From the IMG/VR virus record IMGVR_UViG_2713896798_000017: a stretch of DNA of 46,614 bases; one strand, written 5' to 3'. Origin of the DNA: a virus (lineage: Duplodnaviria; Heunggongvirae; Uroviricota; Caudoviricetes). The position numbers are program-made. This document shows, in pieces, positions 39,001 through 45,000 of this stretch. Position 1 is the first letter of the stretch. Each line of letters starts with the position of its first letter.

Positions 39001-42000
39001 CACCGTGGTGAGTTTGTCTTCACGAAGGAGGCAACCAGCCGGATTGGCGTCGGCAACCTGTATCGTCTGATGCGCGGGTATGCGGAAGGTGGTTATGTGG
39101 GCGGTGCCGGAAGTCCGGCGCAGATGCGGCGGGCGGAAGGCATTAGTTTTAATCAGAACAATCACGTGGTGATTCAGAACGACGGCACCAACGGACAGGC
39201 GGGGCCGCAGCTGATGAAGGCGGTGTATGACATGGCCCGCAAGGGGGCGCAGGATGAGATTCAGGCGCAGATGCGTGATGGCGGCGTCTTTTCCGGAGGC
39301 AGGCGATGAAAACATTTCGCTGGAAAGTGAAGCCGGATATGGAGGTGAACTCGCAGCCATCGGTGCGTGAAGTGCGTTTTGGTGACGGGTATTCGCAGCG
39401 TATGGCGGCGGGGCTGAATGCTGACCTGAAAACATACCGTGTGACGCTTTCCGTGACCCGGGAGGAGGCCCGACATCTGGAGGCATTCCTGGCAGAGCAC
39501 GGTGGCTGGAAGGCGTTTCTGTGGACACCGCCTTATGCCTGGCGGCAGATAAAGGTGACCTGTGCCGCCTGGTCATCACGGGTTCGCATGCTGCGGGTTG
39601 AATTCAGCGCGGAGTTTAAGCAGGTGGTGAACTGATGCAGGATATTCACGAAGAAAGTCTGAACGAGTCGGTTAAATCAGAGCAGTCACCGCGGGTGGTA
39701 CTCTGGGAAATCGACCTGACGGTGCAGGGTGGTGAGCGGTATTTTTTCTGTAATGAGCTGAATGAAAAAGGGGAGGCGGTCACCTGGCAGGGGCGGCAAT
39801 ATCAGGTATACCCGATTGACGGCAGCGGTTTTGAGATGAACGGGAAGGGCAGCAGTGCCAGACCGTCGCTGACGGTGTCCAATCTGTTTGGTCTGGTCAC
39901 CGGGATGGCGGAGGACCTGCAGAGCCTGGTGGGGGCCACGGTGGTCCGCCGCCGGGTGTATGCCCGTTTTCTGGATGCGGTGAATTTTGTGGCGGGCAAT
40001 CCGGAAGCGGACCCGGAGCAGGAGCTGAGCGACCGCTGGGTGGTGGAGCAGATGTCAGAGCTGACGGCCATGACGGCCTCGTTTGTGCTGGCGACACCGA
40101 CCGAGACGGACGGGGCGCTGTTTCCTGGTCGCATCATGCTGGCGAACACCTGTATGTGGGATTACCGGGGAGATGAATGCGGGTATAACGGTCCTGCGGT
40201 GGCGGATGAGTTCGACAACCCCACCACGGATATCCGTAAGGACAGATGCAGCAAGTGCATGCGCGGGTGTGAGATGCGCGGCATGGTGGCTAATTTTGGC
40301 GGTTTCCTTTCCATTAACAAACTTTCGCAGTAAATCCAATGACACAGACAGAATCAGCGATTCTGGCGCATGCCCGGCGGTGTGTGCCTGCGGAGTCGTG
40401 CGGCTTCGTGGTGAGAACGCCGGAGGGGGAGCGGTATATCCCTTGTGTGAATATCTCTGCAGAGCCGGAGGCGTATTTTCGTATTGCACCGGAAGACTGG
40501 CTGCGGGCAGAGATGCAGGGGGAGATTGTGGCACTGGTCCACAGTCATCCCGGTGGTCTGCCCTGGCTGAGCGAGGCTGACCGGCGGCTGCAGATAAAAA
40601 GCGCACTGCCCTGGTGGCTGGTCTGCCGGGGTGACATTCACAAATTCCGCTGCGTGCCGCACCTGACGGGACGGCGCTTTGAGCACGGGGTGACGGACTG
40701 TTACACCCTGTTCCGGGATGCATACCATCTGGCGGGGACTGAAATGCCGGATTTTCATCGCGGGGATGACTGGTGGCGCAACGGTCAGAACCTTTACCTG
40801 GACAATATGGCGGTCACCGGCTTTTACCGGGTGCCCCTGTCCTCTGCACAGGCGGGCGATATTCTGCTGTGCTGCTTTGGTGCTTCGGTACCGAACCATG
40901 CCGCCATATACTGCGGCAACGGTGAGCTGCTTCACCATCTGCCTGAACAACTGAGTAAACGGGAGAGGTATTCTGAAAAATGGCAACGACGAACGCATTC
41001 TGTCTGGCGTCACCGCCACTGGCACGCATCTGCCTTCACGGGGATTTACAACGATTTGGCCGCCGCCTCAGCCTGTACGTGAACACGGCAGCGGAAGCCA
41101 TTCGCGCCCTGTCGATGCAGATGCCGGGCTTTCGCCGTCAGATGAACGAAGGGTGGTACCAGATACGTATTGCCGGTGAGGACACGGCACCGGAGGCGGT
41201 GTACGCCCGTCTTCACGAACAGCTGGGTGAGGGAACGGTCATCCACATTGTGCCGCGACTGGCCGGGGCCGGAAAGGGTGGACTGCAGATTGTGCTGGGG
41301 GCGGCAGCCATCGTGGGCTCTTTCTTCACTGCCGGAGGCTCGATGGCGTTATGGGGTACAGCCCTGAGTGCCGGTGGTTTTTCTGCCACCACGATGCTGT
41401 TTTCACTGGGTGCCAGTATGATTCTGGGCGGTGTGGCCCAGATGCTGGCCCCGAAGGCAAAAACACCGGATTACCGCGCAACGGATAACGGCAGACAGAA
41501 CACGTATTTTTCGTCACTGGACAACATGATTGCCCAGGGTAACCCGATGCCGGTGCCTTACGGGGAAATGCTGGTTGGTTCACGGCGAATCTCCCAGGAC
41601 ATCAGCACCCGTGATGAAGGCGGGGGCGGAAAGGTCGTGGTTATCGGGCGGCAGGGGTAAAAAGAATAAAAAATCCCGCAGTGCTCACGGACAGGAACTG
41701 CGGGAGAGTTACGAAGATTAAGTGTAAGGAATTATTCTTATGTCACGACAAAAACATTAACTCAGAGAGGGAGGATGTGCCGTTCTTTTCAGGGAGAAAG
41801 GATTTATCGTCCTGAGGAATAAAGGTAAGGGGCCCGCCCCTTACCTGACTGATTATTGAATGATGCCGCAGGCCATTCTCGCACCACCACCGCCCAGGGG
41901 CTCCGGATGGTCATGATGGTTATCACCGCCAGCATGAAGCATGAGAGAACGCCCTTTAATCTCTTTTAATGAGTTCAGTCTCGGGGCCAGGACCGGGTAG

Positions 42001-45000
42001 TTCGCTTTTCCGTCATGCGTCACGAACAGCGCAGGGAGGTCGCCCGGGTGTCCATCCGGAGACCAGGGGCCAAGATGTTTGCCGGTGTTTTTCGGGTCAA
42101 AGTGACCGCCAGCCGATAATGCTGCGACCGGTTTTCCGTCTTTCAGTGCCGGGGCGCAATTTCCTTTTTCGTGCACATGAAAACCATGAATGCCTTCAGA
42201 CAGAGAGTGAAGGGCTGGTGTGAACAGCAGACCGTAGGGGGTCTCCTGAATGGTTATTTTTCCAATGCTGACTTCTTTTCCGTCAGCACTGACAAGGTTC
42301 ATTGGGACTTCCTGTTCTGCTGCGTATCCGCATGATGCTGCTGTCAGCATGGCAATGGCAGCAATGATTTTACATTTCATAAAACCCTCATTAATTCCGT
42401 TAACAGACTGAGCTTGCTGGTTACAGGGTAACAAACAGCGTTCTGATGATATCGCGCAATAGCTGTGCAATATCCTATCACTGCGATTAATAATACCAAT
42501 TGAGAGGAACATTATGGGCAAAGGTGGCGGCAAGGCGCACACACCGCGCGAGGCGAAGGACAATCTCAAATCCACGCAGATGATGAGTGTGATTGATGCG
42601 ATTGGTGAGGGACCGATAGAAGGCCCGGTGAAAGGCCTGCAGAGTATTCTGGTGAACAAAACCCCGCTGACGGACACGGACGGTAATCCCGTGATACACG
42701 GTGTGACGGCGGTCTGGCGCGCCGGGGAGCAGGAGCAGACACCACCGGAAGGCTTTGAGTCCTCCGGTGCTGAAACCGGACTGGGCGTGGAAGTGACGAA
42801 GGCAAAACCGGTGACGCGCACCATTACGTCCGCGAACATTGACCGCCTGCGGGTTACCTTCGGGGTGCAGTCACTGGTGCAGACCACGTCAAAGGGCGAC
42901 CGTAATCCTTCCTCTGTCCGGATTCTGATTCAGTTACAGCGTAATGGCCGCTGGGTGACGGAAAAGGACGTCACCATTAACGGCAAGACCACCTCACAGT
43001 TCCTGGCCTCGGTGATTCTGGAGAATCTGCCTCCCCGGCCCTTTAACATCCGGATGGTCAGGGAGACGGCGGACAGCACCCCGGACCAGCTGCAGAATAA
43101 GACGCTGTGGTCGTCATACACCGAAATCATCGATGTGAAACAGTGCTACCCGAACACGGCCATTGTGGGGCTGCAGGTGGATGCGGAGCAGTTCGGCGGC
43201 CAGCAGATGACGGTGAACTACCATATCCGCGGTCGCATCATCCAGGTGCCGTCAAACTATGACCCGGAAAAACGCACGTACAGTGGTATCTGGGACGGCA
43301 GTCTGAAACCGGCATACAGCAACAACCCGGCCTGGTGCCTGTGGGACATGCTGACTCACCCGCGCTACGGCATGGGAAAACGTCTGGGGGCGGCGGATGT
43401 GGACAAGTGGGCGCTGTATGCCATCGGGCAGTACTGCGACCAGACGGTCCCGGATGGTTTCGGGGGCACAGAGCCGCGGATGACCTTTAATGCGTACCTG
43501 TCACAACAGCGTAAGGCATGGGATGTGCTCAGTGATTTCTGCTCGGCGATGCGCTGTATGCCGGTATGGAACGGCCAGACGCTGACGTTCGTTCAGGACC
43601 GCCCGTCGGATGTGGTGTGGCCGTACACCAACAGCGATGTGGTGGTGGATGATAACGGCGTGGGGTTTCGCTACAGCTTCAGCGCCCTGAAGGACCGCCA
43701 CACGGCGGTGGAGGTGAATTACACCGACCCGCAGAACGGCTGGCAGACCTCCACGGAACTGGTGGAAGACCCGGAAGCCATACTGCGCTACGGGCGCAAC
43801 CTGCTGAAGATGGACGCGTTCGGTTGCACCAGTCGCGGTCAGGCCCACCGTGCCGGGCTGTGGGTGATAAAGACCGGACTGCTGGAAACGCAGACGGTGG
43901 ATTTCACGCTCGGGTCACAGGGGCTGCGTCACACACCCGGTGACATTATTGAAATCTGTGATAACGACTATGCCGGGACCCTGACCGGCGGACGTATCCT
44001 GTCCATCGATGCCGCCAGCCGCACCCTGACACTGGACCGTGAGGTGACCCTGCCGGAGACAGGTGCCGCCACGGTGAACCTGATTAACGGCAGCGGTAAG
44101 CCGGTGAGCGTGGCCATCACTGCACACCCCGCGCCGGACCGGATACAGGTCAGCACCCTGCCTGATGGTGTGGAGACATACGGTGTATGGGGACTCTCCC
44201 TGCCGTCACTGCGTCGTCGCCTGTTCCGCTGTGTCTCCATCCGGGAAAACACGGACGGCACCTTTGCCATCACGGCGGTGCAGCACGTACCGGAAAAAGA
44301 AGCCATTGTGGATAACGGGGCCAGCTTTGAGCCGCAGTCAGGCACCCTGAACAGCGTTATTCCACCGGCAGTGCAGCACCTGACGGTGGAGGTGAGCGCG
44401 GCTGACGGTCAGTATCTGGCACAGGCGAAATGGGACACGCCGCGGGTGGTGAAGGGTGTGCGCTTCAGTCTGCGCCTGACCAGCGGAAGCGGAGAAGACA
44501 GCCGTCTGGTGACCACCGCCATCACTGCGGATACAGAGCATCGTTTCAGTGGTCTGCCGCCCGGGGAATACACCCTGACAGTCAGGGCAATTAACAGTTA
44601 TGGCCAGCAGGGCGAACCGGCCACCACCACCTTCCGGATTAACGCGCCAGCAAAACCCGCCACCATTGAACTGACGCCGGGGTATTTTCAGATAACGGCG
44701 GTCCCGCGTCTTGCGGTGTATGACCCGACGGTACAGTTTGAGTTCTGGTTTTCGGAGGCAAAAATCGCAGACACATCTCAGGTGGAAACCTCTGCCCGTT
44801 ATCTGGGGACCGGCAGTCAGTGGAGTGTATCCGGCCCGCACATTAAGCCCGGGAAGGATTTCTGGTTTTACGTGCGCAGCGTCAACCTGGTGGGGAAATC
44901 TGCGTTTGTGGAAGTCAGCGGGCAGCCCAGCAATGATGGTGAAGGGTATCTGGAATTTTTCCGGGAAAAAATAGGAAAACTGCATCTGGCTCAGGGGCTG

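Follow-up and report, generated by a model that had tools for sequence, protein, structure and literature searches.

We looked into the superoxide dismutase gene sodC in a stretch of Caudoviricetes DNA of 46,614 nucleotides (nt) (IMG/VR record IMGVR_UViG_2713896798_000017; the whole stretch is called the window below). In all probability, this feature is a moron of a lambdoid prophage, inserted between tail genes I and J, and corresponds to the known phage-borne Cu,Zn superoxide dismutase (SOD) gene of pathogenic Escherichia coli in the form of its sodC-F2 allele. Prophage-borne sodC is a textbook case of phage cargo that helps its bacterial host to survive oxidative attack. Judged by its sequence, the window gene belongs to what is already known, as the gene, the allele, its position, and its expression behavior have all been published. 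Recognizing sodC helps to annotate the prophage as a lambdoid element of the enterohemorrhagic/enteropathogenic E. coli (EHEC/EPEC) type and adds no new biology.

The SodC protein, its allele, and its expression

We first give the elements that belong to sodC itself.

41853..42380, minus strand: sodC coding sequence (CDS), 528 nt encoding 175 amino acids (aa), allele sodC-F2 (ATG at 42380, TAA at 41853)
42321..42380, minus strand: part encoding the signal peptide (residues 1 to 20), with a lipobox-like AASC containing Cys17
42381..42513, minus strand: sodC 5' region, with a ribosome-binding site (RBS), GAGGG, at 42389-42385, 4 nt before the ATG
41823..41846, minus strand: hairpin of the sodC intrinsic terminator, an 11-bp perfect GC-rich stem followed by TTTATTCC, 6 nt past the stop codon
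41769..42513, minus strand: sodC-specific cassette (terminator, CDS, and 5' region), absent from sodC-less relatives

The 175-aa protein matched the Pfam family Sod_Cu (PF00080) over residues 40 to 174 (111 bits for a cutoff of 28.9; E = 7e-32) and the NCBIfam SodC equivalog (NF007628) over residues 2 to 174 (214.9 bits for a cutoff of 165), and solved bacterial SodC structures matched it with E = 1e-55 to 1e-62. We then aligned the protein with 128 database homologs (cluster representatives) and with human SOD1. The copper ligands H68, H70, H93, and H149 (human H46, H48, H63, and H120) and the zinc ligands H93, H102, H111, and D114 (human H63, H71, H80, and D83) were all kept and were invariant in the 128 homologs, as were the cysteines of the disulfide (C75/C171), the catalytic R168, and D153. 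A first-pass annotation of this DNA had pointed to the loss of metal-binding histidines on alignment as the outcome that would speak against an SOD; every His and Asp ligand is present. The N terminus resembles a signal peptide, with K2 and K4 preceding a hydrophobic core at residues 5 to 15 (mean hydropathy of up to 2.66) and with AASC and GYA-A cleavage motifs, all of which were recognized as sequence features. Such matches are far beyond chance, and on these grounds the open reading frame (ORF) encodes a genuine periplasmic Cu,Zn SOD. Profile, structure, and leader evidence thus agree with the earlier description of a complete periplasmic enzyme with a signal peptide, encoded between I and J on the strand opposite to them. 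A longer ORF of 344 aa (41853-42887, GTG start at 42887) was discarded as an artifact of taking the first start after a stop, the homologs and the family model all starting at the ATG at 42380 (MKCK).

The CDS is base-for-base identical to one copy in O157:H7 EDL933 (1,290,007-1,290,534; WP_000649830) and to sodC_1 (ECs_1120) of the Sakai prophage Sp4. At nt 335, it has a C, which makes codon 112 CCG (Pro112), and this is the sole difference from the genes of E110019, of the Stx2a phage EH2201, and of SCPM-O-B-7615 (T335, Leu112). The two O157:H7 prophage genes were reported to differ precisely there and to be otherwise identical, sodC-F1 having Leu and sodC-F2 having Pro, with T and C, respectively, at nt 335 (D'Orazio 2008, PMC2569942). 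Because C335/Pro112 is the exact published difference between F1 and F2, we assign the window gene to sodC-F2. The Pro112 protein was found on 977 public contigs, and the Leu112 protein was found on at least 1,000. The likeness to the SodC-F2 loci of EDL933 and Sakai Sp4 extends beyond the identical CDS to the position between I and J, the orientation, and the flanking noncoding DNA (99.8%). In contrast, the prophage of the window is a different mosaic from those that carry the O157:H7 copies: its best whole-region match reaches 99.3%, K, I, and J differ by 3 to 7%, and J and Lom are frameshifted.

The behavior of these genes has been described in some depth (PMC2569942). Both genes are active in the prophage state in exponential as well as stationary phase, whether or not oxygen is present and without any need for RpoS, and phage SodC is relatively more abundant in bacteria within Caco-2 cells. 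The protein undergoes dual processing by signal peptidases I and II and is accordingly found partly soluble in the periplasm and partly anchored to lipid. Deletion of phage sodC lowers the resistance to peroxide. Purified SodC-F1 is a very stable dimer that withstands both proteinase K and EDTA and has an activity of 19,380 U/mg. Tagged SodC-F2 shows the same accumulation as F1 as well as an enrichment in bacteria that are inside cells.

An RBS, an ATG, a signal peptide, and an intrinsic terminator of its own make sodC an autonomous unit on the strand opposite to the late operon. For the identical gene, the literature shows that transcription in the lysogen does not depend on the late promoter of the phage and that SodC is exported, one part being freed by signal peptidase I in the periplasm and another being lipid anchored via Cys17 (PMC2569942). 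The periplasmic enzyme would then dismutate superoxide from the host or the environment, which may give the lysogen a higher resistance to peroxide and to the oxidative burst. The minus-strand terminators, that of sodC and then one of PasB type described below, would prevent transcription of sodC from continuing into the tail genes in the antisense direction.

Several points weigh against this reading, and the first concerns the promoter. A scan of positions 41300-42900 returned no sigma-70-like promoter with at least 9 of the 12 consensus matches. The best candidate for a -10 box is TATCAT (42451-42446), which lacks a credible -35, and E110019 and Stx2_EH2201 have exactly the same 133 nt (100% identity) in front of sodC. 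In an alignment of six diverged sodC loci, we searched the upstream region for a repeat resembling a PhoP box and for conserved -35/-10 pairs; the closest cassette (82% identity) shared only the TATCAT block and a TTAAC near the RBS, and we could not assign a promoter. The lack of a promoter of 9/12 or better, together with a conserved TATCAT devoid of a -35, would suit a sodC without a constitutive promoter, served either by an activator acting at a weak promoter (for example, of the PhoP type, as for Salmonella sodCI) or by antisense read-in from J. We consider this unlikely, as the region upstream of sodC-F drove plasmid-borne lacZ fusions in E. coli K-12 and log-phase cells in lysogeny broth contained detectable protein (PMC2569942), which favors a promoter working under ordinary conditions. 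The attribution to sodC of a promoter of its own therefore comes from published fusions and tagged proteins and not from a sequence consensus. As to the earlier claim that its own promoter makes sodC lysogen expressed, the expression of the identical gene in lysogens is published, and the promoter has no recognizable consensus in the sequence.

The second concern is the allele. Residue 112 is Pro in 2 of the 128 cluster representatives, which belong to the same E. coli lineage, versus Leu in 123 of them; moreover, SodC-F1 only was purified and assayed, and for SodC-F2 only accumulation was shown (PMC2569942). One could thus suppose that Pro112, which lies between the zinc ligands His111 and Asp114, cripples or inactivates the enzyme and that the Leu allele (F1) is the functional one. 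This seems quite improbable to us, given that the Pro allele is fixed and widespread, its 977 contigs including EDL933 and Sakai, that sodC-F2 is one nucleotide away from F1 and has no further damaging changes, and that the tagged protein behaves like F1 in accumulating and in being enriched inside cells (PMC2569942). In addition, human SOD1 tolerates Val at the equivalent residue, whose side chain therefore does not act as a ligand.

Lastly, the frameshifts in J and Lom suggest that the prophage of the window is decaying elsewhere, and its phage-linked functions may not all be intact. The proximity of these broken genes is what could be said for sodC being itself a chance open frame or a decayed, functionless remnant. 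We give this idea practically no credence: the SodC equivalog match is full length, the catalytic residues are intact, and the gene is identical to experimentally expressed ones, so that the chance-ORF version is already refuted.

The sodC cassette as a moron and its relatives

Positions 41661-42513 are exactly the 853-bp gap that separates two tail genes of the plus strand, namely, gene I, whose stop is at 41660, and gene J, whose ATG is at 42514.

40980..41660, plus strand: tail assembly gene I, the left neighbor (Pfam Lambda_tail_I, E = 1.2e-16; RefSeq-style start at 41079)
42514..45991, plus strand: tail tip gene J, the right neighbor (NCBIfam lambda_TipJ, 2142 bits, residues 1 to 1036)

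Homologs of L and K lie upstream of the gap and a Lom/Ail gene lies downstream, and the homologs of gene I are annotated as tail assembly protein in E110019, SCPM-O-B-7615, EDL933, and Sakai. The same I-J gap measures 240 bp, versus 853 bp here, in loci without sodC, namely, those of PhiR5_1, the Shiga toxin (Stx) phages of types Stx1a and Stx2c, prophage PP6 of E2348/69, and Sakai Sp11, Sp14, and Sp15. Homology with the sodC-less phages ends on the left at about position 41768 and picks up again at the ATG of J. The GC content is 0.53 in the sodC CDS and 0.40 upstream of it, compared to 0.60 in I and 0.59 in J. We thus find what is expected of a moron, that is, an extra gene between otherwise adjacent genes, a terminator of its own, and a deviant base composition; as for a lysogen-active promoter of its own, the sequence contains no consensus site, and expression is shown by published fusions and chromosomal tags (PMC2569942). 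The proposal that sodC is a moron serving as fitness or virulence cargo is therefore upheld by its absence from related phages at this spot, the dip in GC content, its own RBS and terminator, and its published expression.

We then evaluated the distribution of the locus. The 2-kb I-sodC-J stretch was recovered (at least 80% coverage) in two Stx2a phages and, out of 5,426 complete genomes of E. coli, in 541 to 547. The 853-bp gap alone reached at least 99% identity in 525 records, whereas only one record reached 99% when the flanks were included; the cassette thus varies less than the surrounding tail genes do.

A comparison of positions 24000-46614 with SCPM-O-B-7615 gave a similarly uneven picture. 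Positions 24000-40000 of the window are 100% identical to it, and all 146 substitutions fall within 40000-44000 (K, I, and the 5' part of J). Within the cassette (41769-42513), only sodC nt 335 differs, and about 12 more differences are found at 41606-41720, an interval made up of ~55 nt at the end of I and ~60 nt at the beginning of the gap. The clustering of the 146 substitutions gives the impression of a patch of recombination surrounding a cassette that has been conserved.

In comparison with a 99.3%-identical prophage, gene J has an extra T at 45621 that shifts its frame and leaves two ORFs (42514-45660 and 45695-45991), and it has more single-base indels relative to SCPM-O-B-7615 at 45798, 45829, and 45838-9. 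The Ig_GpJ_C domain, from the receptor-binding C-terminal part of J, is consequently a separate ORF (45695-45991) in another frame. The Lom/Ail gene (46024-46457) is also broken relative to SCPM-O-B-7615, with a G lost at 46263 and two bases lost at 46418, and is read as ORFs of 88 and 51 aa. The frameshifts in J reflect either a decaying prophage or sequencing errors.

The hairpin at the 3' end of sodC folds stably on both strands (-17.4 kcal/mol and -17.9 kcal/mol). A T-run follows it on the minus strand but not on the plus strand, which runs on as GACTGATTATTGAA and was not called terminator-like. Since the T-run is found only on the strand of sodC, we interpret the hairpin as a one-way terminator belonging to sodC. 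Two diverged sodC cassettes have retained this hairpin, in which 2 base pairs show compensatory changes. The first-pass annotation had described a GC-rich palindrome that flanks the gene and acts as a bidirectional terminator; the palindrome itself is real, and it sits on one side (3') of sodC only and has its T-run on one strand only. An Rfam scan of 41300-42800 (E of at most 1) gave only subthreshold matches across the sodC region. One of them, to STnc400 at 41813-41889 on the minus strand, covers the 3' end of sodC and its terminator and scored 23 bits for a gathering threshold of 80, probably through mere similarity between terminators, and two other matches in the scanned interval were dismissed as noise.

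Comparable arrangements exist in Salmonella prophages. In Fels-1, sodCIII (STM0924) occupies the same slot between gpI and gpJ, on the strand opposite to the tail genes. However, the two proteins share only 59.9% identity, detectable DNA homology was confined to the tail genes, and sodCIII of Fels-1 lies only ~54 nt from I, so that no PasB-type element fits between them. Like the window gene, sodCI of Gifsy-2 (STM1044) is a prophage-borne moron on the opposite strand within the tail block, and it is an established virulence determinant; published parallels are that SodCI is dimeric, stable, and RpoS independent (PMC2569942). It differs from the window SodC in its sequence (58.2% identity) and in its junction, which is Lom/M-L and not I-J. 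The chromosomal SodC of E. coli (PDB 1ESO) shares the fold, the family, the ligands, and the periplasmic location with the window protein, but the mature proteins are only ~61% identical, and the chromosomal enzyme is monomeric, RpoS dependent, made only in aerobic stationary phase, less active and stable, and not lipid modified (PMC2569942).

An 82%-identical SodC is found on contigs of ~90-110 kb (e.g., CP024150.1), beside an IS3-family transposase and a ParA-like gene. From this gene content, we infer that the contigs are plasmids. The 82% cassette is homologous to positions 41800-42659 of the window and comprises the same terminator, the upstream region, and a decayed stretch of ~146 nt from the 5' end of J. 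The sodC cassette appears to have moved from a phage to this replicon of ~90-110 kb.

A PasB/EcOnc22-type small-RNA remnant next to gene I

The part of the gap that lies outside the sodC cassette contains one further element.

41668..41750, minus strand: body and intrinsic terminator of a small RNA (sRNA) of the PasB/EcOnc22 family (stem 41705-41674, T-run 41673-41668)

The hairpin in this body folds at -16.1 kcal/mol (z = -3.6). Positions 41668-41768 share ~96% identity with the DNA that about 40 sodC-less Stx1a/Stx2c phages have between I and J; because they are common to phages without sodC, we consider the first ~110 nt after gene I as the remnant of an sRNA gene and not as sodC DNA. On the minus strand, the sodC-less loci have a promoter, TTCACA-16-TATAAT (11/12), followed by ~85 to 95 transcribed nt, a CCCGCAG...CTGCGGG hairpin, and U6-7. 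The window lacks this promoter and has the end of the sodC cassette in its place, as does EDL933.

PasB of EPEC strain E2348/69 is an experimentally validated, Hfq-dependent sRNA of 83 nt (NC_011601, 1466343-1466261), which we placed between I and J by mapping. The element of the window resembles it in lying directly after the stop of I on the opposite strand, in its terminator arms and U-run, and in its size class (83 to ~85 nt). The two align over all 83 nt, with identical terminator arms. The element differs in that only 64 of the 83 nt are identical, in its loop, so that the published probe is an inexact match, and in the loss of the promoter. Sakai EcOnc22, EcOnc23, and EcOnc24 are Hfq-bound sRNAs of ~85 nt that are destabilized without Hfq, and each lies in an I-J gap devoid of sodC, in Sp15, Sp14, and Sp11, respectively. 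Once the coordinates are shifted by about +139 between versions of the Sakai genome, a value estimated from the position of AgvB, their Hfq peaks would coincide with the PasB-like body. The anti-sRNAs AgvB and AsxR were rejected as the identity of the I-proximal hairpin, as they lie at the pR' moron site and their sequences are unrelated.

The Hfq screen in Sakai reported no Hfq-bound orphan sRNA beside sodC in Sp4 (1.20 Mb), a site that the filters of the screen may have excluded, and listed no peak near 1.92 Mb, which is the estimated position of sodC in Sp10. A full-text literature search with the sequence of the element gave no match. The juxtaposition of sodC with a PasB-type element is mentioned neither in the sodC paper (PMC2569942) nor in the survey of Pas sRNAs (bioRxiv 2026.05.13.724894), the latter being silent on sodC.

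The sRNA body and its terminator lie ~70 nt downstream of the sodC terminator, which looks leaky, its U-tract being only UUUAUUCC. In the window, the PasB-like element may either be silent or arise from transcripts that read through the sodC terminator. A tentative and rather doubtful extension of this idea is that the cassette landed on the sRNA promoter and that, in the ~540 sodC-bearing genomes, the sRNA was either silenced or rewired as a read-through or 3' untranslated region product coexpressed with sodC under oxidative or host conditions.

The sodC-less gaps also have, just upstream of J and inside the late operon, a terminator-like hairpin on the plus strand (ACAGGCA..TGCCTGT, then TGTTTTTGTG). 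It is absent from the window, where the 5' region of sodC occupies its place.

Elsewhere in the window, Rfam matches at gathering level were obtained for DicF, sok, three tRNAs, and STnc100, at 4435-4486 (minus strand) and at 13246-13420, 19482-19728, and 19808-19998 (plus strand). An ORF of 616 aa (20221-22071) aligns with a gene of SCPM-O-B-7615 annotated as a SASA-family carbohydrate esterase. The tRNAs and this ORF leave no space between them for stx genes, and we therefore regard the element as a non-Stx lambdoid prophage of the EHEC/EPEC type.

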